Source: Spirochaetaceae bacterium
GTDB taxonomy: Bacteria; Spirochaetota; Spirochaetia; B11-G9
DNA: 35,865 nucleotides
Direction of reading: 5' to 3'
Assembly: GCA_030638735.1 (NCBI GenBank)
Contig: DAOWEB010000035.1
Location: 1 to 35,865 of the forward strand
Part shown: piece by piece, positions 1,635 to 19,837 of the stretch
How positions within the stretch are numbered: the stretch's first letter is position 1
How the letters are laid out: every line of letters begins with the position of its first letter
Translations under genes and position numbers: made by a program
Notes under the pieces: generated by a model
Seen by the model: only the letters and a program-made list of their open reading frames with translations
What the model was told of the DNA's origin: nothing
The model's database searches: none

Positions 1635-2927
1635 TTACCACCTATTTTGTGTCGGTACATCTATTATTTTAACCGATTTTTTCTTTCTGTCAAGTCTGGA
1701 TCTCTGAATAGCCAAAGAACATGCATAGCGGATACTATCAATACTATGGTTGTCCTTGTCCGGAAACTTACTTATCACTTCCCCTTGTCGGTTCACTTCA
1801 AGGGCATAATTGACAAATTCCTTTGCGGATAATGGGCATCGTACAGGGTCAATAATTATCTCCTCAAGATCTTGAAGCCATTTTACACCATGATCAACGC
1901 TCCCAGGACCTTTCTCTGCACCTGTGATTTTTAGCCCATGATCTTCTCTTAGTTCATCAATGCTCTTAGGTTCTGCTTTGTCCGCCATAGTTAATTCTGT
2001 TTTTTGTTCTTCTGACAACATTTCTGCAAATTCTCTGTTTTTTATCCCGTGTCCTGAAATCTCATCGAATAGGAAAAGCTGATTCCGCTTAGAATCGTAG
2101 TGCATTTGCTCAAAGCAAAGAGGATCCGCTGCATAACCAAAATCAAGCCCCTGATATATGTTATCAAAATAAGACATATCGTTTTCTGTAATTGTTCTGA
2201 TTGTAACATTGTTAAATATTTCTAATCCTGTCCCGACCTCTTCACCTAAATATTCATGTTTATAAGCCATTTCATTAACATTTTTTAAATGCTCTGCCTC
2301 TGCAACAAAACGCTCCCCCAGCCATTCAAGGGGAACTTCTCTATAATCTGAGTAATGAACAGTCCTACCAACTTTTGACGCTTTGCTTTCCATATTTGCC
2401 CATGATCTGGCAGACTTTGGAGGGTTGTAAGAGTAGAAACTTATCTGTTTTTTTGTCGTACCTCTGAAAAGAGACTGTAATATATTTCTTATTTCTCCCA
2501 TACCAGGGAACTGATCAACCTCTTCAAACCAACAAAATTTCACATATCCGGTTCCGAGATTAATAGATTTTATCTTCTGCGGATTATCAGCACCTTTGAA
2601 TATAATAATTTGACCTGTAGGAATATATGTAATCTTATATGGGGAAACATTAAACCTGAAAAGCCCTGCAACACCAAGTTTATTAGCTGCCCATTTGATC
2701 TGACCAAAGACAGAATCACGTATTTCATTTTCATATCTTCGGAAGATTACAGCGTTTGCTTCAGGATCTTTTATAATTCCGAGAATTATCTCTATAGAAA
2801 TGAAAGAGGACTTTGTTGATCCTCTTCCACCTCTAAGCCAATATTCAATAAAATCCTCTGTTGATATCTCGTTATGTAGATCATAAAAATTGGAAGCGAT
2901 GCAGTCAGATAGCTTAATATCTATCAA
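1635..2927 (-). CDS. terL: Terminase large subunit (PBSX family)
   Basis: Walker A GGRGSTKS, Walker B WFEEVDQF, coupling motif SYNPP, nuclease motifs GLDFGYAADP and DKDNHSIDSIRY. TTG start with AAGGAGG, overlapping the upstream stop. Confidence 0.96.
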   Translation of the reverse strand: MIDIKLSDCIASNFYDLHNEISTEDFIEYWLRGGRGSTKSSFISIEIILGIIKDPEANAVIFRRYENEIRDSVFGQIKWAANKLGVAGLFRFNVSPYKITYIPTGQIIIFKGADNPQKIKSINLGTGYVKFCWFEEVDQFPGMGEIRNILQSLFRGTTKKQISFYSYNPPKSARSWANMESKASKVGRTVHYSDYREVPLEWLGERFVAEAEHLKNVNEMAYKHEYLGEEVGTGLEIFNNVTIRTITENDMSYFDNIYQGLDFGYAADPLCFEQMHYDSKRNQLFLFDEISGHGIKNREFAEMLSEEQKTELTMADKAEPKSIDELREDHGLKITGAEKGPGSVDHGVKWLQDLEEIIIDPVRCPLSAKEFVNYALEVNRQGEVISKFPDKDNHSIDSIRYACSLAIQRSRLDRKKKSVKIIDVPTQNRW

Positions 2928-5212
2928 ACATGCCCTCCTTCACACCATTTCGTGTAATTAGCTTCGAGTGCCATAAGATCAAAGTTAGAACCAGATAGAA
3001 CACTCATATTTATTGAAATTGCAATGAAGTCTGGAGCACCTCCATCTCTTCTTGATAACACTCCTGATACATCTAACAAAAAGGTATAAACCTCAATTTC
3101 TCCTACAACCACGGCTCTTGATTCTGAAACTGACTGTTTTCCTGGTAATAATCCAGGATCTGAAGTATATGCTATATCTCCCTCAGTCACCCAATCATAG
3201 GCTATTGTTATTTCTACAGTTCCCGTCCCTGTTGGCCTCCCTGCAATTATAAATTCTATGGGTGATGATGTATCAAGATCCAATGGTGCAAAGAAATACC
3301 TTCCTATATAACTAGTTGTGGTGATAAATCTATTTTCAATTAAACCAGCTGCAACATTTAGATTGATCCATATAGATTGATTTTGTACCGTTCCCGCAAA
3401 TGCCCTGTCACCTCCAATAGAAAGAGGTAGTTGACCAATAGGACGAGCACTACCAAAATACTCAATCCATCCGTCTGAATTTAATTCAGATCTATTTGTG
3501 TGCAATTTGAATTGTTCAAATATTGGTGCTGTAGTTACTGCAGAATCAATTCTAAGTCTTATCCAATAATAATTAGTACCTAAAGACATTGGATCATTCT
3601 TAACCCATCCATTAGTCGCTAACTGACTATCATATCTAATATGCTGACTTCCGATATTTTCAAAGTATTTGTTGGCATGGGGTAGATATTGTCCACCGGA
3701 TTCTACTTCCATACTTGGAACTTCTGTCCATGCTGCTCCATCCCAATATTCAATTATAATACTCCCTGCCCCTTTCACAGCTGCTGTTAATACACTTACT
3801 TTTATTCCAAAGTGCTCCAAATAGTCAGTCCCATCATTTAAAATACTAGCAAGATATATAGAATTATCTGCTGCTATCCCAGGAAAAGTGAAAGAGGATC
3901 CGCTTGAACTTCTTGCTTCATCACTTACATCTACAAAAGCACCAAGAGTAGTTTCCGTATAAACTATCATTCCATTTGTGTAGGAATCGCCACCACCAAA
4001 GACTGACTCTGTGGGTCTTGTCGGAGTTCCTACATGTAATTCTCCAAAAACATTAAGACCTTCGTCTCCCTCTGTTGTATCTAATAAATATGCAAATATT
4101 TCTGCCCCTGGGATAATAAAAGATTTATTCAATTGTGTGTAACCATTCCCTAGTACAGTTACATTGGGATTAAGAATATTAAAATTGAGATTTACACAAT
4201 TGATTATTGTTGTAGCAAACAGCGACAGGTTAATTCCTGTACCAACATTTTCAATCCGGAAACCATCATTGAAACAATTCTGTATTTTTACAGCATCAAA
4301 CTCTACAATTGTGTCATTTCCATAAACAACTAGCCCATCAGTGCATAACCCTATAAATAATGCTGTGCCTAATGTTTTGGAACCGTCAAAACATTTTATT
4401 GCTGTGTGCATCCCAGGTGTTGCCGCAATCATATTATGAATATTTACAAAAGAATCTGTCCCACTTATACTTATTCCGGTAGTAACTTTAGCTGTCCCCC
4501 TGAAAGTGATTTCATCAAGCGTAGCTGCCCCAGCTACTATATTTATTGCATTTATGGTGATTGTTCCCGCTGGATTATTTATTGCTAAAACTTTAATCTC
4601 AAATAAAGCTGATGCATTGTTTAGAATAAATCCATTTGAACAATCCCTAAGAACACAATCTTGTATAAAAGTACTTCCTAATCCTTCATGCCTGACAATA
4701 TAACTTGTTCCAGTGTTGCCAGAAAATACAATACCTACAAGATGAGAAAAGGTATTTCCTAAAAACATATCTTGTGCAGGATCTTTCGGGGTAAATGTAA
4801 CCGATCTTAGTCCTGTAGATGATATATTACAATATGATTTTAACTGCAAGGCTCCAGCTGTATTGTCTACCTCGTATAATCCAGGCGCTACAGCAATTGT
4901 ATATCTGTTTGTTGATGAATTATCTGTGATAAAAGCAAGAGCCTCTTCAATAGTTGTAAAATCACCACCAGATTTAGCAACAGTGATCAAATTATGTAGC
5001 GGTTTTTTCAGTTCTGCAACTTCACTTGTTAGATCATTTGCCCTTGACTCTATTGCAAAAAGAGCCTGTGAGCTGTCTGTATCATCTTCTGGTATAAGCC
5101 TGTTAATATATTTTATCAATCGCTCAAACTGAACAAGAGTGTCATGGTCATTAATGAAAGAAGATAATTGTTTTCTTGTTAATTTTAATTTATCGTTAAT
5201 TGGAAAAGCCAT
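2924..5212 (-). CDS. Large virion tail/receptor-binding protein with pectinesterase-like lead-in and beta-helix (762 aa)
   Basis: N-terminus KLKLTRKQLSSFINDHDTLVQFERL resembles the tail protein that usually follows gp10 in P22-like podoviruses. ITVAKSGGDFTTIEEAL...IAVAPGLY is a pectin-lyase-fold cap, followed by a G/N/I-rich beta-helix. Confidence 0.7.
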   Translation of the reverse strand: MAFPINDKLKLTRKQLSSFINDHDTLVQFERLIKYINRLIPEDDTDSSQALFAIESRANDLTSEVAELKKPLHNLITVAKSGGDFTTIEEALAFITDNSSTNRYTIAVAPGLYEVDNTAGALQLKSYCNISSTGLRSVTFTPKDPAQDMFLGNTFSHLVGIVFSGNTGTSYIVRHEGLGSTFIQDCVLRDCSNGFILNNASALFEIKVLAINNPAGTITINAINIVAGAATLDEITFRGTAKVTTGISISGTDSFVNIHNMIAATPGMHTAIKCFDGSKTLGTALFIGLCTDGLVVYGNDTIVEFDAVKIQNCFNDGFRIENVGTGINLSLFATTIINCVNLNFNILNPNVTVLGNGYTQLNKSFIIPGAEIFAYLLDTTEGDEGLNVFGELHVGTPTRPTESVFGGGDSYTNGMIVYTETTLGAFVDVSDEARSSSGSSFTFPGIAADNSIYLASILNDGTDYLEHFGIKVSVLTAAVKGAGSIIIEYWDGAAWTEVPSMEVESGGQYLPHANKYFENIGSQHIRYDSQLATNGWVKNDPMSLGTNYYWIRLRIDSAVTTAPIFEQFKLHTNRSELNSDGWIEYFGSARPIGQLPLSIGGDRAFAGTVQNQSIWINLNVAAGLIENRFITTTSYIGRYFFAPLDLDTSSPIEFIIAGRPTGTGTVEITIAYDWVTEGDIAYTSDPGLLPGKQSVSESRAVVVGEIEVYTFLLDVSGVLSRRDGGAPDFIAISINMSVLSGSNFDLMALEANYTKWCEGGHV

Positions 5213-5989: not shown

Positions 5990-6235
5990 TTTTTAACATT
6001 TTAACATATTAAAGGCTAAGTCTTTATATAGTATATAATTAGCGATGCGAAAAGCGATGCGAAAACGGTGGGAAAACGGGAATTTACTATGGCCCGTTTT
6101 CGCATATTTAACCAAATTCATGTACATATTAAACAATCATTACTATAAATATAATATATAAAAATGGCTGATATGTTAAAACCAATACCCTGAAAAATCG
6201 CTTTTAACATGGTTTTCGCATCGCTTTTCGCATGA
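5990..6235. other. Putative replication origin with convergent ATGCGAAAA iterons and a 22-bp inverted repeat
   Basis: atgcgaaaagcgatgcgaaaac (6045-6066) is the exact reverse complement of 6212-6233. An extra copy lies at 6097-6105, TTAACAT repeats occur at 5993, 6001, 6173(-) and 6204, and the centre is AT-rich. It sits at the strand switch upstream of the primase-helicase. Confidence 0.7.
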
Positions 6236-6257
6236 TAAAAATAAATCATTTAAGGGG

Positions 6258-6286
6258 TTGATATCTATGTACATATGTTATATGCT
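6258..6286 (+). promoter_or_regulatory. Sigma70-like promoter for the replication operon
   Basis: TTGATA-17 nt-TATGCT, then an AAGGAG RBS before ATG 6319. Confidence 0.55.
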
Positions 6287-6318
6287 GTTATTACTTACAT
6301 AATAAACAAGGAGTAATC

Positions 6319-6492
6319 ATGTTATCAAGAGTAGTTGTTGAAATTGATTCTGATTTAAAAAAGGAAGCACAAATTAAAGCCCTTCAAAATGATGCAACTT
6401 TAAGAGATATTGTATCAGATGCCCTACGTCTTTATTTAAAAGACGAAGTAGAAGTAAAAACAGAAAACCAGGAAGACATAGAAATCAACTAA
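6319..6492 (+). CDS. Ribbon-helix-helix regulator (ParG/CopG-like, 57 aa)
   Basis: My translation: MLSRVVVEIDSDLKKEAQIKALQNDATLRDIVSDALRLYLKDEVEVKTENQEDIEIN. It has an alternating beta-strand plus two helices and a strong RBS. Confidence 0.8.
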   Translation: MLSRVVVEIDSDLKKEAQIKALQNDATLRDIVSDALRLYLKDEVEVKTENQEDIEIN

Positions 6493-6504
6493 CGGCGGTT
6501 ATAA

Positions 6505-8973
6505 ATGAATGATGTTTTTGAAGCCGCAAGAAATAAAATAGGAGCTGGTTTAATTCATTCCTTCTTTAATTCTGAAGGCTCATATAGTAGGGCAGGTGAA
6601 TATTATATTTTGTCACCTTTAAGAAGTGATCGTAATGTTGGATCTTTTCATATCAATGAAGAGACTGGACAATATTATGATCATCAAACTGGAGAAGGTG
6701 GGGATTTTATAGATCTGGTTTCTAAAGCCAGAGGGGTAAATTCGAAAGAAGCAGCTGAGCATATTTTAAATGAATCAGGCGGTATATTTATAAATCCTGA
6801 TACTTCTAAGAAAAAGCATAAAAATAAGAAAGATTTAATACCTCCGCAAATTCCTATTCCTGATACTGCTGAAATAAAAGAATCTTTAAAGAAACGAGTA
6901 AAAGATCAATGGTGTCTGGATAACTGGGGTAAGGCTACAAGTATAAGCCGATATTATAATAAAGACGGAGGATGGTGTTTTGTTGTATGTCGTTTTGAAA
7001 TGGAACAAAAAGTAAAAGGCAAGAAGCGCAAGAAAAACGACATATTATTTTATTTGGGAACTGATAATAAATGGCAGACAAAATGGCATGATGATTTAAA
7101 GCCTTTTCCTCCTTATGGTATTGAGAAAATCAAAGATAATAATTTACCTGTTTTAATTGTGGAAGGTGAAAAATGCGCAAGAGTAGAAGTCCCTGGATAT
7201 AATGTTATTTCATGGATCGGTGGAACTTCCAATATGGGAAAAACAAATTGGAACCTGTTAAAAGGTCGGGAAATTATAATATGGCCTGATACCGATTCAG
7301 AACTTGATAAAAATAAAGAGTTCTTCCTTCCCAGAGAATTACAATCAGGGATGAAAGCAGCATATTATATTAAATCTCAATTATCGACTTCAAAAATATT
7401 AGATATCTATAAAAATAAACCTCTTGAAGATGATCCCCACGGATGGGATATTGCTGATTTTGTAGAGGAAGGTGGGGACCCTTTAAAGTTTATTGAAGAG
7501 TTTACTCCTTATAATTCTATATCTGTTCAAATTGATCCTTACCAGGTTTACCGGAAATTCATAGAAAATTATTATGATCATGATAGCTTAGAACAATCAT
7601 CCGGAGGATTCTGGAATTATTATGAGGATGAACACTTCTGGAGAAAAACTACTAAAAATGATATTTTATGTAATTTTCAAAGATGGCTTGAAGATACTGG
7701 CCTGCAGTGGGTAATAGCAAAAAAGCAAAAAGCAACAACATTTATAAATGATACAAAACAATATTTAGATCGTCATTCCCTGGGGTATGTTGGAAATAAT
7801 CCTTTTAAAGATTCTGCAATTTCTCCATATATTCATTTTAACAATGGAGCTATTCATATTACTAAGGATAAAATTGAATGGTTCGAACGGATTAAATATG
7901 GTGAAGATTTCTATAAAAAACTGTATCCAGTCCATTGTCTTGATTTTGATTATGACCATACAAATTATAATAATATTGATCCAGAAAAAGACGCACCCGC
8001 ATTTTATTATTTTATAAAGGAATTAATACCTCATAAATATTTTGAGAGATTAAATAAAAAGGATAAAATAAAATCAATAAAAGATACACTTATTTTTATT
8101 AGCCAGATAATAGCTTATTCACTTTCTCCAGTAAAACCAAATGAATACTTTTTCGGTATTTATGGCAAGCAAAGAACTGGTAAAAGTTTTCTTCTTGATA
8201 TAATTAAATCTATTATAGGAAAGGAATTTTGTGTTGAAAAGCCTATTACAGATATGGAAAACCGTTTTGCCTCTTCTGGATTATGGGGTAAAAAGGTATT
8301 TATTGAGCCTGATTTGAAAACCAGAAAGATGTTACCAGAGGCATTTATTAAAGCATATGCAGGAGAACAGACAATTACAGTAGAAGAGAAAAATATGCCT
8401 GCAGTCGATGGGGTTAATATTAGTATGTCAATGTTCTTTGTATCTAATTATGAATTCCATACAAAAGGGCTTGAAGGATTAGCCCGCCGGATGGTTATGG
8501 TTCCATATAAGAATAATATTAAAAAACATGATACCAGATTACTTGATAAAATTTTAGGTAAATATCCCCATGGTGAAGAATCAGAAGAATTACAAGATAA
8601 AACTTTTGACGAACGTCCGGCAATAGTTGCCCTTACTATGAGGGCATGGGAGAAGTTTTGTGATAATGATTTTATTATGCAAATCCCTGAATGGGCTCAG
8701 AAAGAAAAAGATATCTGGTTAATAGAGTCCAACAGCGTTGTTAAATTTATGGAAGAAAGATATTACAACCAGGCTTATACAATGTCTGTAAAAAGAAAGG
8801 AGATTTATGATCAGTATAAAGAATGGTGCGAGGAAGAAGGGCGCAAACCATTAGGAAAAAAGAATTTTTATGAAGATGTCCGCATGGATGAAAGGATTAC
8901 AGAGACCAGAATCTTAGGTGCTGAGAGTTTCAGAATAGAAATAACCGGAAATGAGGATGATATACCATTTTAA
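6505..8973 (+). CDS. Primase-helicase (Cys-less DnaG-type zinc-binding-like domain, TOPRIM, D5/P4-type SF3 helicase, winged helix)
   Basis: SPLRSDRNVGSFHIN...GEGGDFIDLV, TOPRIM VEGEKCA and WPDTD, Walker A GKQRTGKS, and C-terminal wHTH (YDQYKEWCEEEGRKPLGKKNFY). The protein ends EDDIPF. Confidence 0.9.
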   Translation: MNDVFEAARNKIGAGLIHSFFNSEGSYSRAGEYYILSPLRSDRNVGSFHINEETGQYYDHQTGEGGDFIDLVSKARGVNSKEAAEHILNESGGIFINPDTSKKKHKNKKDLIPPQIPIPDTAEIKESLKKRVKDQWCLDNWGKATSISRYYNKDGGWCFVVCRFEMEQKVKGKKRKKNDILFYLGTDNKWQTKWHDDLKPFPPYGIEKIKDNNLPVLIVEGEKCARVEVPGYNVISWIGGTSNMGKTNWNLLKGREIIIWPDTDSELDKNKEFFLPRELQSGMKAAYYIKSQLSTSKILDIYKNKPLEDDPHGWDIADFVEEGGDPLKFIEEFTPYNSISVQIDPYQVYRKFIENYYDHDSLEQSSGGFWNYYEDEHFWRKTTKNDILCNFQRWLEDTGLQWVIAKKQKATTFINDTKQYLDRHSLGYVGNNPFKDSAISPYIHFNNGAIHITKDKIEWFERIKYGEDFYKKLYPVHCLDFDYDHTNYNNIDPEKDAPAFYYFIKELIPHKYFERLNKKDKIKSIKDTLIFISQIIAYSLSPVKPNEYFFGIYGKQRTGKSFLLDIIKSIIGKEFCVEKPITDMENRFASSGLWGKKVFIEPDLKTRKMLPEAFIKAYAGEQTITVEEKNMPAVDGVNISMSMFFVSNYEFHTKGLEGLARRMVMVPYKNNIKKHDTRLLDKILGKYPHGEESEELQDKTFDERPAIVALTMRAWEKFCDNDFIMQIPEWAQKEKDIWLIESNSVVKFMEERYYNQAYTMSVKRKEIYDQYKEWCEEEGRKPLGKKNFYEDVRMDERITETRILGAESFRIEITGNEDDIPF

Positions 8974-9855: not shown

Positions 9856-10632
9856 ATGAAGGCGTATAAAGTATTTAATCCAGATTGGACATGTAGAAGT
9901 TTTCATTACAAAGTAGGTGAAACTTATTCTATAAAAGAAGATCCTCAGTTATGTAGTTTGGGGTTTCATGCCTGTAAAAAAGCTGTAGATTGTTTTGATT
10001 ATTATAAATTTGATCCTAAAAATAAAGTTGCTGAGGTTGAATTATTAGGCAAAATTGAGGGTCTTGACGATGATAAACAGGTAACCAATAAAATCAAAAT
10101 AATTAGAGAAATTCCATGGGGTGAATTATTGGAATTAGTAAACAGCGGCAAAGATAATACTGGTAAAAAGAACAGCGGAGACCGGAACAGCGGATACCTG
10201 AACAGCGGATACCGGAACAGCGGAGACCGGAACAGCGGAGACCGGAACAGCGGAGACCGGAACAGCGGAGACCTGAACAGCGGATACCTGAACAGCGGAG
10301 ACCTGAACAGCGGATACCGGAACAGCGGATACCTGAATTCAAAATCACCAGCCAAAAGTTATGCTTTTAATAAACTTTTGGAAGAATCAGAATTACAAAA
10401 AATATTACATTCAAGAGGATTTAATATTTTAATGAGATTCAGACTTGTTAAATATAGAGTCAGAACTAAAACTGGTAAGTTTGGGGATTATAGGTATATC
10501 TCTTATAAAAAATCATGGAAATATTTATGGTCTACTCTTTTAATTCAGGAAAGAATTGCTGTATCAGAAATTCCTCATTTTGATAAAAATGTATTTTTTG
10601 AAATAACAGGAATAAAAGTTATTGTAAAATGA
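9856..10632 (+). CDS. DUF7666-like protein with NSGxx pentapeptide repeats
   Basis: N-terminal MKAYKVFNPDWTCR...YKVGETY...LCSLGFHAC domain, NSG(D/Y)(R/L) repeats, and C-terminal FDKNVFFEITGI typical of this phage family. Confidence 0.85.
   Translation: MKAYKVFNPDWTCRSFHYKVGETYSIKEDPQLCSLGFHACKKAVDCFDYYKFDPKNKVAEVELLGKIEGLDDDKQVTNKIKIIREIPWGELLELVNSGKDNTGKKNSGDRNSGYLNSGYRNSGDRNSGDRNSGDRNSGDLNSGYLNSGDLNSGYRNSGYLNSKSPAKSYAFNKLLEESELQKILHSRGFNILMRFRLVKYRVRTKTGKFGDYRYISYKKSWKYLWSTLLIQERIAVSEIPHFDKNVFFEITGIKVIVK
10171..10335 (+). repeat. 11 x 15-bp tandem repeat AACAGCGGA(G/T)ACC(G/T)G
   Basis: Read directly. Units encode DR, YL, YR, DR, DR, DR, DL, YL, DL, YR, YL after NSG. Confidence 0.95.
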
Positions 10633-13788: not shown

Positions 13789-14040
13789 ATGGCATATTTT
13801 GCGAATGGATCAGAAGGGGAATGTTTTGAGGCTCAATGTGAAGAATGTAGATATGGTGAAAAACCGTGTCCTATTGCAGGTATCCAATTAAATTATAATT
13901 ATGATGCTTGTAATAATGAAGTAGCAACAAAAATCTTAAATGATCTTGTAAAAAATGATGGAACATGTGAAATGTTTAAATTGTGTAAAAAAGATTTTCA
14001 ACTTACTGAAGGTGAAAAATCTCAGATATCATTATTTTAA
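13789..14040 (+). CDS. Small Cys-rich protein ending in clamp-binding-like QISLF
   Basis: MAYFANGSEGECFEAQCEEC...CPI; the C-terminus is QISLF. Confidence 0.75.
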   Translation: MAYFANGSEGECFEAQCEECRYGEKPCPIAGIQLNYNYDACNNEVATKILNDLVKNDGTCEMFKLCKKDFQLTEGEKSQISLF

Positions 14041-14041
14041 T

Positions 14042-14215
14042 ATGAATCTTATCTATGATATCCGACTTGATACAGTTCTTTGTCCATGTTGTAATGGACC
14101 GGCACACTGGACTAAAAAAGGCTTACAATGTGAATGGGATAAATGCAAATATTTTTATACTATATTTCCAGTAAAAAAAAGCGTTAATATATTTCAATTG
14201 GAATTAGATTTTTAA
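14042..14215 (+). CDS. Small zinc-finger protein ending in QLELDF (probable start 14042)
   Basis: CPCC...CEWDKC; the ATG lies 1 nt after the upstream stop. Confidence 0.6.
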   Translation: MNLIYDIRLDTVLCPCCNGPAHWTKKGLQCEWDKCKYFYTIFPVKKSVNIFQLELDF

Positions 14216-14217
14216 TA

Positions 14218-14290
14218 TTGCGGGAACGGGACTCGAACCCGTGACATCATGGTTATGAGCCATGTGTTCTGCCAACTGAACTACCCCACA
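14218..14290 (-). tRNA. tRNA with CAT anticodon (probably elongator tRNA-Met); CCA not encoded
   Basis: Full cloverleaf: TGTGGGG TA GTTC AGTTGGCA GAAC A CATGG CT CAT AA CCATG ATGTC ACGGG TTCGAGT CCCGT TCCCGCA A. Confidence 0.92.
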
Positions 14291-14295
14291 AAAGT

Positions 14296-14324
14296 AATAT
14301 ACCATAAAAAACCCGGCTGATCAA
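14296..14324 (-). promoter_or_regulatory. tRNA promoter
   Basis: TTGATC-17-TATATT with an extended TG, only 5 nt before tRNA position 1. Confidence 0.6.
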
Positions 14325-14333
14325 ACCGGGTTT
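14305..14333 (-). terminator. Rho-independent terminator (possibly bidirectional)
   Basis: On the minus strand, AAACCCGG-loop-CCGGGTTT followed by further Ts. Confidence 0.7.
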
Positions 14334-14344
14334 CACGTGAAACA
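14329..14344. other. parS-like centromere site (GGTTTCACGTGAAACA)
   Basis: 15/16 match to the bacterial parS consensus TGTTTCACGTGAAACA, with a perfect 14-bp palindrome, in an intergenic position. Confidence 0.8.
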
Positions 14345-14356
14345 AATTTCTTATTA

Positions 14357-14722
14357 CTAAATAATTAAAGTTAACTGTTGATAGTGACTTGCAAAATGCA
14401 AGTATCCTCCCCTCAGTTCGCTGATTATTGTTAATTGTGCAAAATACTTTATATTGTAAGATTTTACTATAGTTTCCATCTCAAGGCCGATGTCTGCCGA
14501 TGCACTAACCGCTTTATTATCAATAACTACCTGTTCACTAAGGTCAACCGAAAGAACGGCTACACCTCCAAAATCCGGCGCCGAAACAGCCTGAATTTCT
14601 ACCATAGTCAAATTAGGAATATTTTCTAGTGAGATAAAAAACCCTTCCAGGCTTTCTGCTGTTACCATTGTCGAAAATGACAAAGCCAATACCAACAGCG
14701 TAATTAATACATATTTCTTCAT
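14357..14722 (-). CDS. Exported protein with signal peptide (121 aa), moron-like
   Basis: GGAGG RBS before ATG 14722 and signal peptide MKKYVLITLLVLALSFSTMVTA-ES. It has its own extended -10 and flanking terminators. Confidence 0.7.
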   Translation of the reverse strand: MKKYVLITLLVLALSFSTMVTAESLEGFFISLENIPNLTMVEIQAVSAPDFGGVAVLSVDLSEQVVIDNKAVSASADIGLEMETIVKSYNIKYFAQLTIISELRGGYLHFASHYQQLTLII

Positions 14723-14754
14723 GTCTGAATCCTCCTGTAAAATATCAATAAATA

Positions 14755-14790
14755 AGTATAGCATAAAAAACCCCTTATTAAAAGGGGCTG
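14755..14790 (-). terminator. Terminator of the accessory cluster, immediately followed by an extended -10 (TGcTATACT)
   Basis: Minus strand reads CCCCTT-TTAAT-AAGGGG-TTTTTT-aTGcTATACT. Confidence 0.65.
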
Positions 14791-17137: not shown

Positions 17138-17759
17138 TTGAGTTTTCCTTATTATCTGGAGATTTCCCATATTGCTCAAAATAGGCTTCATTAAATTCTT
17201 CTTTGGGTTTCAGATTATTGCATCCTGTACATTCATAAGGAAAATCATCTAAACAACTGCAACCGATACAGCTATTTCCATCTTTTACAAATGTTCCCAT
17301 CTGTTCACTCTCCTTTAAGGCTTCTGTTACCATATTATATATTGTATTAAGCGTAGGAGTATGCAGGATACATTTCTGTTTTACCTCTTCCAAAGCATCC
17401 CTTAACTTTTTGTTTTTATCTTTATGTTCTTTATCTCTACCCATCCATTCTTCAATTACTACTATATCTAATCTACATTTTTCTTCTAACTTCTTTATTT
17501 CTACCTGATCGGTTACATGTATTTCTTGATACATCTTTGCACTTGTTAAAGAGTCTTTAACTTGTTCAGTGTAATCATCTATATCATTTTTAAGTAGTCT
17601 TATTTCTTTATCAAGGAATCTGTAATCTTCAACAGCCATTAAATAACCAAGTTTCAATTCCATTGTATGAGGTTCAATATATTCGCCATGAGACATAGAT
17701 AAATCATAACCCATATTCCTTGCTCTATTTTCAAACTCTTCTCTTATTTTATCCATCAC
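17124..17759 (-). CDS. Coiled-coil hypothetical protein with a C-terminal Cys cluster
   Basis: REEFE N-terminus, long coiled coil, CIGCSC...CTGC. Confidence 0.7.
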   Translation of the reverse strand: MMDKIREEFENRARNMGYDLSMSHGEYIEPHTMELKLGYLMAVEDYRFLDKEIRLLKNDIDDYTEQVKDSLTSAKMYQEIHVTDQVEIKKLEEKCRLDIVVIEEWMGRDKEHKDKNKKLRDALEEVKQKCILHTPTLNTIYNMVTEALKESEQMGTFVKDGNSCIGCSCLDDFPYECTGCNNLKPKEEFNEAYFEQYGKSPDNKENSNDNT

Positions 17760-19381: not shown

Positions 19382-19837
19382 TTAGACTCCAATGTTGTAG
19401 TAGCGTATTGACATCAAATTACTAAAATGTATCTTAGGCATATACGGATCGTAATGCTCTCTCCTGAAGTGGCCGTTACCGTTCTTAGTCTTAAACTGGA
19501 GTATCATAAACATTCCGTATTTCTTACCCCAGGAGTCACGATCTGTTAAATATCTTGCTCCTGAATATGTTACCTTATCATGACAATCAAAAACTTCCAG
19601 AATATCCTGCAAAACTTTTGTATGGGAATTAATATAGCAGTCTTTACCCATTAACGGAATTTCTTCCCCATTCCGGATAAATGTAGTAGTGGTCAAATGA
19701 TCATAAAGTTTATTGATAGTTTTAGGTATAAAATCATGTCCAGTATATTTTTCGGCTATATCCATAAGGGAGAAGAAAAGACAGCCGTATTTATTTATAT
19801 TTTCATTAAAGGATTTATCTGTTTGTTTGTATTTCAT
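19382..19837 (-). CDS. DUF261-like protein; putative cysteine-peptidase-type endolysin
   Basis: KYKQTD...INKYGCLFFSL...GHF...YDPY resembles spirochaete DUF261 and a C39-like Cys-His-Asp triad. It occupies the lysin position. Confidence 0.6.
   Translation of the reverse strand: MKYKQTDKSFNENINKYGCLFFSLMDIAEKYTGHDFIPKTINKLYDHLTTTTFIRNGEEIPLMGKDCYINSHTKVLQDILEVFDCHDKVTYSGARYLTDRDSWGKKYGMFMILQFKTKNGNGHFRREHYDPYMPKIHFSNLMSIRYYNIGV

Follow-up and report, generated by a model that had tools for sequence, protein, structure and literature searches.

Why would a phage that encodes neither partition proteins nor an integrase carry the centromere motif of a bacterial chromosome? The question is raised by contig DAOWEB010000035.1 of assembly GCA_030638735.1 (Spirochaetaceae bacterium), the 35,865 nucleotides of which were analysed in full and are referred to as the window, and which represents a P22-like phage binned with a spirochaete metagenome-assembled genome (MAG). 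An earlier note, made from the sequence alone, had drawn attention to a 15-out-of-16 match to the chromosomal parS consensus in the window, and this match was borne out: positions 14329-14344 read GGTTTCACGTGAAACA against the palindromic consensus TGTTTCACGTGAAACA, they depart from it at one position only, the outermost (14329), and leave the palindromic core of 14 bp, GTTTCACGTGAAAC at 14330-14343, unbroken. By its sequence, the phage 16-mer is a chromosomal-type parS that is not distinguishable from the chromosomal sites of the clade, and it is probably a real loading site for host ParB that was borrowed by the phage. Jalal et al. (2020, PMC7383237) number the parS half-site from the G ("guanine 1, adenine 6"), with the outer T outside the numbered core, which is consistent with a dispensable outer base.

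The probability of such a match was estimated in two ways. Under a first-order Markov model of the 35.7-kb genome, 3.5e-4 sites are expected at up to one mismatch and 4.9e-5 for the 14-bp core; with ~250,000 windows scanned, tens of chance matches are expected at 3.5e-4 each, which counts against a functional site and makes the p-value alone insufficient to decide. At up to three mismatches the site is the only parS-like match in the window, and shuffled sequences searched at this threshold, which is lenient relative to the actual match quality, gave a mean of 0.14 matches, with a match in 13 of 100 shuffles.

The same motif is used by the predicted host, a comparison that the earlier note had proposed. 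The phage contig (C258) belongs to a 4.33-Mb MAG of 431 contigs (90% complete, 6.8% contamination), whose GyrB shares 87% identity with that of a "Spirochaetia bacterium" MAG and 65-78% with those of other spirochaete MAGs. The MAG encodes a parA-parB operon (contig C235), the ParB of which matches solved chromosomal ParB/Spo0J structures at E-values of 1e-52 to 1e-53. It also carries parS twice in perfect form, at a distance of 365 bp, in the interval from gyrB-gyrA to an adenosine deaminase gene. Perfect TGTTNCACGTGNAACA was present in 52 of 61 genomes (60 same-class relatives and the binned MAG) at one to four sites per genome, and the reversed control motif had no match in the same 61 genomes. 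Of 31 genomes, 28 contained the 14-bp core, in all but one (G029, with sites at the ends of two contigs) as a single cluster confined to one contig. The mismatch of the phage site recurs in this set as well: among the one-mismatch sites listed (14 without that of the phage; 22 further matches lie outside these), 10 vary at the outermost base and 4 at position 5/12, and the exact phage variant was found in G029, inside the chromosomal cluster and 56 bp from a perfect site. Relative to chromosomal ParABS, the phage site thus has an identical core and an outer-base variant that is native to the clusters of related genomes; it differs in being single, located on a phage and distant from parAB, whereas the chromosomal sites of the clade lie in one cluster, which in the binned MAG is found beside gyrB-gyrA. 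Pairs of parS sites were also observed in other genomes of the same genus, 341-584 bp apart. The ~350 bp between the two host sites (contig C77, 5229-5609) hold two G+C-rich hairpins, and this spacer had no match to an Rfam family. A second, short open reading frame (ORF) with a ParB_N match is present in the host assembly away from parA-parB (C171:11827-12063, 136 aa, E-value 1.9e-9).

The replicon that carries the site was read correctly as a complete P22-like genome. The window closes by a 141-bp terminal direct repeat to a circle of 35,724 bp, with the portal gene split over the window ends, and its P22-like gene set comprises portal, terminase, scaffold, coat, gp4/gp10-like connectors, a gp7-like ejection protein, and a tailspike with a head-binding domain. 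Judged by the coat protein (53-55% identity), its closest relatives in culture are phages of Ralstonia and Pseudomonas. No ParA, ParB, or recombinase was identified among the 55 ORFs (Pfam at E ≤ 0.01, PHROGs at E ≤ 1e-3), and the proposed absence of ParA, ParB, and integrase also withstood six-frame hidden Markov model (HMM) searches of the whole assembly for cryptic copies: ParB_N, ParA, and tyrosine integrase (6 matches) were located on other contigs only, and a serine recombinase had no match anywhere in the assembly. The phage ORFs further gave no match to an S24/CI-type repressor, and small helix-turn-helix (HTH) ORFs border two divergent junctions of the genome. With neither a tyrosine nor a serine recombinase, the phage does not qualify as a temperate integrating phage, nor does it qualify as a phage-plasmid with its own partition system, as no ParA-type ATPase or centromere-binding protein was found.

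The nearest precedent is Bacillus phage phi29. The use of its parS sites by host Spo0J was reportedly described by Meijer et al. in 2005. In our scan, phi29 carried four perfect parS sites in 19 kb, one of which (17243-17258) is located directly after gene 16 and 4 nt from an annotated bidirectional terminator (17262-17301). According to PMC2731898, phi29 has five parS sites and the segregation of its genome to the prespore involves host Spo0J, so that paper and scan uphold phi29 as the precedent invoked for the window phage. The likeness is twofold, i.e., a phage without its own ParA and ParB carries the parS motif of the host chromosome, and one phi29 site lies 4 nt from a terminator at a convergent junction, much as in the window. 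The differences are threefold: phi29 has five sites (four of them perfect in the scan) and the window phage one instead of several; the phi29 genome is linear and protein-primed and that of the window phage circularly permuted and P22-like; and phi29 is trapped in the spores of a sporulating Firmicute, whereas the binned host here is a member of the Spirochaetia. To our knowledge, spirochaetes do not form spores. By analogy, the principle known from phi29 probably recurs here in a P22-like phage whose host is non-sporulating and probably a spirochaete. Phage genomes that are maintained as episomes by a ParB-type centromere are known from P1 (parABS) and N15 (sopAB), whose genomes supply ParA, ParB, and a centromere sequence of their own; the window phage encodes neither ParA nor ParB. 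A parallel in the use of a foreign centromere is SGI1, the parS mimics of which, according to PMC10954446, bind the ParB of the helper (IncC) plasmid, stabilise SGI1, and destabilise the plasmid. SGI1 resembles the window phage as a mobile element without partition genes that bears copies of the centromere of another replicon, and differs from it in that the lender is a helper plasmid, that two copies act together with the accessory protein Sci, and that the element is integrative and not a phage. Other users of host ParB among phages were sought in the literature, with poor coverage of subscription journals, and only phi29, plus SGI1, was found.

Orphan sites of this type were also recovered from viral contigs at large. 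In IMG/VR, some of whose "viral" contigs may be plasmids or pieces of host DNA, perfect parS was present in at least 137 stretches (115 sequence clusters) vs 2 for the reversed palindrome (at least 68-fold), and the outer-mismatch class, to which the phage site belongs, in at least 122 stretches vs 11 for the reversed control (at least 11-fold); this control has the same base composition and is equally palindromic, and it does not copy every sequence bias. By these counts, viral parS sites exceed chance as a class. Each stretch covers up to 3 kb on either side of the site, and chromosomal-type ParA or ParB was detected by tblastn in 0 of the 137 (79 of them longer than 2 kb), with a positive control that worked. 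Among 17 records of at least 30 kb, picked from 80 listed, ParB_N was identified in 2, a tyrosine integrase in 2 (integrases are rare in environmental phage contigs anyway), and a ParA-type ATPase in none; 5 further records of the outer-mismatch class contained ParB_N once. Five outer-mismatch records of 35-41 kb were unrelated to the window phage at the DNA level. The viral sites prefer non-coding DNA, with 57 of 105 located within an ORF of at least 80 aa compared to 3390 of 3950 random positions. A tRNA was present in the fetched flank of 3 of 79 viral parS loci, two of the three being the same contig. Some viral contigs carry four to five parS sites within 1 kb (L111, L151, L093), and in another (L163/L164, 2926-3016), the sole further case of parS beside a tRNA among the 79 loci, only 3 nt separate a perfect parS from the 5' end of tRNA-Gln. 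We tentatively propose, with more doubt than confidence, that orphan chromosomal-type parS sites could be widespread and largely undescribed in phages, that many phages with non-sporulating hosts could load host ParB onto them, and that the borrowed centromere could enable the window phage, which lacks an integrase, to be maintained as a segregating episome. As a lead, this viral excess of orphan parS may be of more interest than the single site.

For the window phage itself, the following course of events is regarded as the likeliest. After injection and circularisation of the phage DNA, host ParB dimers would bind the complete 14-bp core, close as clamps that depend on cytidine triphosphate (CTP), and slide to adjacent DNA, so that the phage genome would bear a partition complex of small size. 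Acting on this complex, host ParA (possibly also SMC) would take charge of positioning or segregating the phage DNA, which replicates itself without integrating, and both daughter cells would then retain it as long as lysis is absent or delayed. ParB is known to act as a clamp, and a single parS is sufficient to stabilise a plasmid. The data show the sequence match, the canonical ParAB and identical motif of the binned host, the lack of phage ParA, ParB, and integrases, and the viral enrichment of orphan sites, whereas ParB binding, clamp loading, an effect on positioning or inheritance, and a carrier state are inferred. The reading of the earlier note is plausible and has gained firmer ground; a role in positioning or segregation via host ParB and ParA is a serious possibility that we hold with reserve, and the plasmid-like carrier state is putative.

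Several observations weigh against such a role. Apart from the number of windows scanned, these are the single copy of the site in the phage genome (compared to five in phi29), the limits of the reversed control and of the IMG/VR contigs given above, and, above all, the distribution of the site among related phages, in which it is not conserved; this goes part of the way to the refutation named in the earlier note, absence from close relatives. The early region has few relatives (a helicase search returned one 42% relative in IMG/VR and four relatives in JGI metagenomes), and the two closest ones found are the metagenome contigs L235 and L236, one helicase being 88% and the other 79% identical. 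Homology to both ends exactly at the helicase stop codon; hence, the segment with the two small ORFs, the tRNA, and the parS-like site is an insert specific to this lineage, at a position that varies. In the 2.2 kb downstream of the helicase, L236 contains no tRNA and no site at up to three mismatches and runs directly into a convergent leftward operon; the flank of L235 is too short to judge, leaving L236 as the only informative relative. Likewise, the surroundings of the coat genes at 80 related loci, 883,739 bases in all, contained no site at up to two mismatches, nor was one detected at up to one mismatch in any of 18 related P22-like records (12 of them at least 90% complete). When the 5 kb that surround the site were compared at the DNA level with 50,697 phage records, tRNA and YopX fragments alone were returned.

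This distribution is what would be expected of a chance match or a neutral passenger, which perhaps arrived with the lineage-specific tRNA segment and to which ParB may bind with no gain to the phage. The hypervariable segment in which both relatives lose homology, the absence of the site from the L236 junction and from all 18 P22-like records, its single copy, the many comparisons in the wider scan, and the ~11 outer-mismatch matches of the control in IMG/VR all agree with it. It is opposed by the low expectation per genome and by the at least 11-fold excess of this class over the control in viral contigs, as well as by the lack of any trace of recent capture from the host, since similarity between phage and host at the site is limited to the motif. 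The flanks of the phage site had no similarity to any MAG contig, and capture of the insert together with its tRNA from the host origin region was rejected, as none of 28 chromosomal parS loci had a tRNA within ~1.5 kb. On balance, a passenger appears somewhat unlikely.

A further group of points that tell against a borrowed host-ParB site concerns the host assignment, which rests mainly on binning into a MAG with the contamination given above. No CRISPR (clustered regularly interspaced short palindromic repeats)-type spacer match between phage and host was found, a homologue of the coat protein was present in none of 400 other Spirochaetia genomes, and a tblastn search with 55 phage proteins returned only four weak matches to genes in the MAG. 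All sampled words of the window are contained in one public sequencing run, probably its source, with no recurrence elsewhere; two other runs of the same study contain next to none of them. The best phage-host match, of 23 nt (contig C415), was considered as a spacer and rejected, being located in ordinary coding sequence. On the other side, the G+C content of the phage (37.2%) is close to that of the MAG (35.9%), and one 55-aa phage ORF is 61% identical to an ORF in a MAG of the same genus. The ORF at 19385-19837 (minus strand) contains a DUF261 domain (E-value about 1e-7), which was present in 17 of 200 other Spirochaetia genomes, in multiple copies in one small-genome genus, and in none of 14 control genomes; DUF261 thus points, independently though modestly, to a spirochaete as host. 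The host link is thus sound in part only, and the host is probably a spirochaete. The parS motif is common to most bacterial phyla, so that the argument requires a host with a canonical ParB and not this exact host.

The position of the site within the phage genome would also suit other uses of bound ParB. It is placed where the rightward replication operon (end at 14215) meets a leftward operon (last gene 14722-14357), and falls in the 3' untranslated region of the latter gene, the protein of which had no family match in Pfam, PHROGs, or NCBIfam. On the minus strand, 12 nt separate the stop codon from the parS-like site, after which come a terminator, a promoter, and a tRNA gene (Table 1). 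The terminator has a G+C-rich stem followed by a T6 run on the transcribed strand, as is characteristic of intrinsic terminators; it had been passed over by a simple scan whose loop limit of 8 nt is exceeded by its loop of 9 nt. The minus strand of 14292-14360 folds with -18.6 kcal/mol (z -3.06), a stability reached by 1 of 200 shuffles. Fold and coordinates agree with the described overlap between the parS-like site and one terminator arm (5 nt shared with the 5' arm) and with the gap of 4 nt by which the site precedes the -35 element of the tRNA promoter, an element itself located within the terminator loop. This promoter is predicted from a consensus match at 9 of 12 positions, with a predicted start at or beside the 5' end of the tRNA, and the region contains 9 promoter-like sites vs 5.8 ± 2.5 in shuffles. 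The -10 element ends just 5 nt ahead of the tRNA, which may therefore be almost leaderless. A second terminator-plus-promoter module of like design is found at 14750-14790 and shares a near-identical T-run plus TGnTATAnT with 14296-14336 (minus strand); the two modules suggest that the phage routinely fuses a terminator to the next promoter.

Table 1 Features of the window at the operon junction around the parS-like site and in the replication region
Feature	Positions	Strand	Details
Chromosomal-type parS-like site GGTTTCACGTGAAACA	14329..14344	.	Consensus match; core 14330-14343
Intrinsic terminator of the leftward operon	14306..14333	-	Arms 14326-14333 and 14309-14316, loop 14317-14325, T-run 14311-14306
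Sigma-70-like promoter for the tRNA (predicted)	14296..14324	-	-35 TTGATC 14324-14319, 17-nt spacer, TG-extended -10 TATATT 14301-14296
tRNA-Met (anticodon CAT)	14217..14291	-	ARAGORN; Rfam tRNA 65.3 bits
Last gene of the leftward operon, small protein with N-terminal hydrophobic signal-like segment	14357..14722	-	Start at 14722 after AGGAGG, read from the sequence
Two small ORFs, end of the rightward replication operon	13789..14215	+	In the lineage-specific segment with the tRNA and the parS-like site
Replication module: iteron-like 12-mers, 57-aa ORF, primase/D5-type helicase	6041..8973	+	Helicase 6505-8973

Given this arrangement, ParB on the phage DNA could have a role other than partition, either by gating the tRNA-Met promoter or read-through at the terminator, which would tie phage expression to the ParB/CTP state of the host, or by titration of ParB, which would upset host segregation or SMC loading. 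Besides the overlap with the terminator stem and the proximity to the -35 element, gating is favoured by the ParB-dependent repression of promoters beside parS3 and parS4 in Pseudomonas aeruginosa (reported in PMC5521831) and by the one other viral contig with a perfect parS next to a tRNA-Gln gene; titration would have a parallel in the destabilisation of the helper plasmid by the parS mimics of SGI1 (PMC10954446). The pairing of parS with a tRNA is not general in viral contigs, however, given the 3 of 79 loci with two on the same contig, and the promoter matches the consensus only in part, so that we regard a non-partition role as unlikely. A function independent of ParB, with the palindrome as an operator for a phage protein or as an extension of the terminator structure, would fit the overlap with the terminator arm and the small HTH proteins of the phage that have no assigned target; it is nevertheless very improbable, as no second copy or array of half-sites was found in the window at up to three mismatches, as the palindrome is not used as a hairpin of its own in the minimum-free-energy fold, and as structure alone does not explain an enrichment in IMG/VR in which the equally palindromic control had 2 matches vs at least 137. 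Host DNA joined into the contig by an assembly or binning artefact, for which the fragmentation of the MAG into 431 contigs and its 6.8% contamination could be cited, is hardly credible in a contig that closes on itself by the 141-bp overlap with an unbroken phage gene set, in which the DNA on either side of the site has no match among the host contigs and all sampled words of which occur in a single run.

A replication module is encoded by the phage itself. Of the iteron origin and CopG/ParG-like regulator claimed in the earlier note, the first agrees with repeats in the sequence and the second was not confirmed. Iteron-like 12-mers (GCGATGCGAAAA-like) occur as direct copies at 6041-6079 and as inverted copies at 6197-6233 around an AT-rich stretch, just upstream of the 57-aa ORF (6319-6492), and this ORF had no Pfam support for a ribbon-helix-helix protein even at E ≤ 5. 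Located upstream of this ORF and the primase, the 12-mers may be an origin or an operator. A second candidate for iterons at 10170-10337 (plus strand) was rejected, the 15-bp unit repeated ~11 times being coding sequence for the pentapeptide repeats of a DUF7666 protein (ORF 9856-10632). The other replication genes are a second helicase, a RecE-like exonuclease, and a Gp3-like protein. A 762-aa ORF at 2924-5212 (minus strand), positioned between the small and large terminase genes, was also inspected as a candidate for a cryptic ParB or integrase and discarded, as it had no match in Pfam, PHROGs, or NCBIfam. A protein atlas gives only a weak beta-helix/tailspike-like lead for it (0.82), and the ORF could encode a further tail protein, depolymerase-like and unusually placed.

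If the site is a passenger, it would be a well-matched but ordinary motif match. If host ParB loads on the phage, the trick known from phi29 would be general and not confined to spore-formers, and phages without integrase and partition genes would be positioned, inherited, or regulated by the chromosome-segregation machinery of their hosts. This would affect the prediction of phage lifestyles from genomes and raise the question of whether titration of ParB disturbs host segregation, and it would have a bearing on the persistence of "virulent-looking" phages where environmental hosts grow slowly, as in a cold-seep community.

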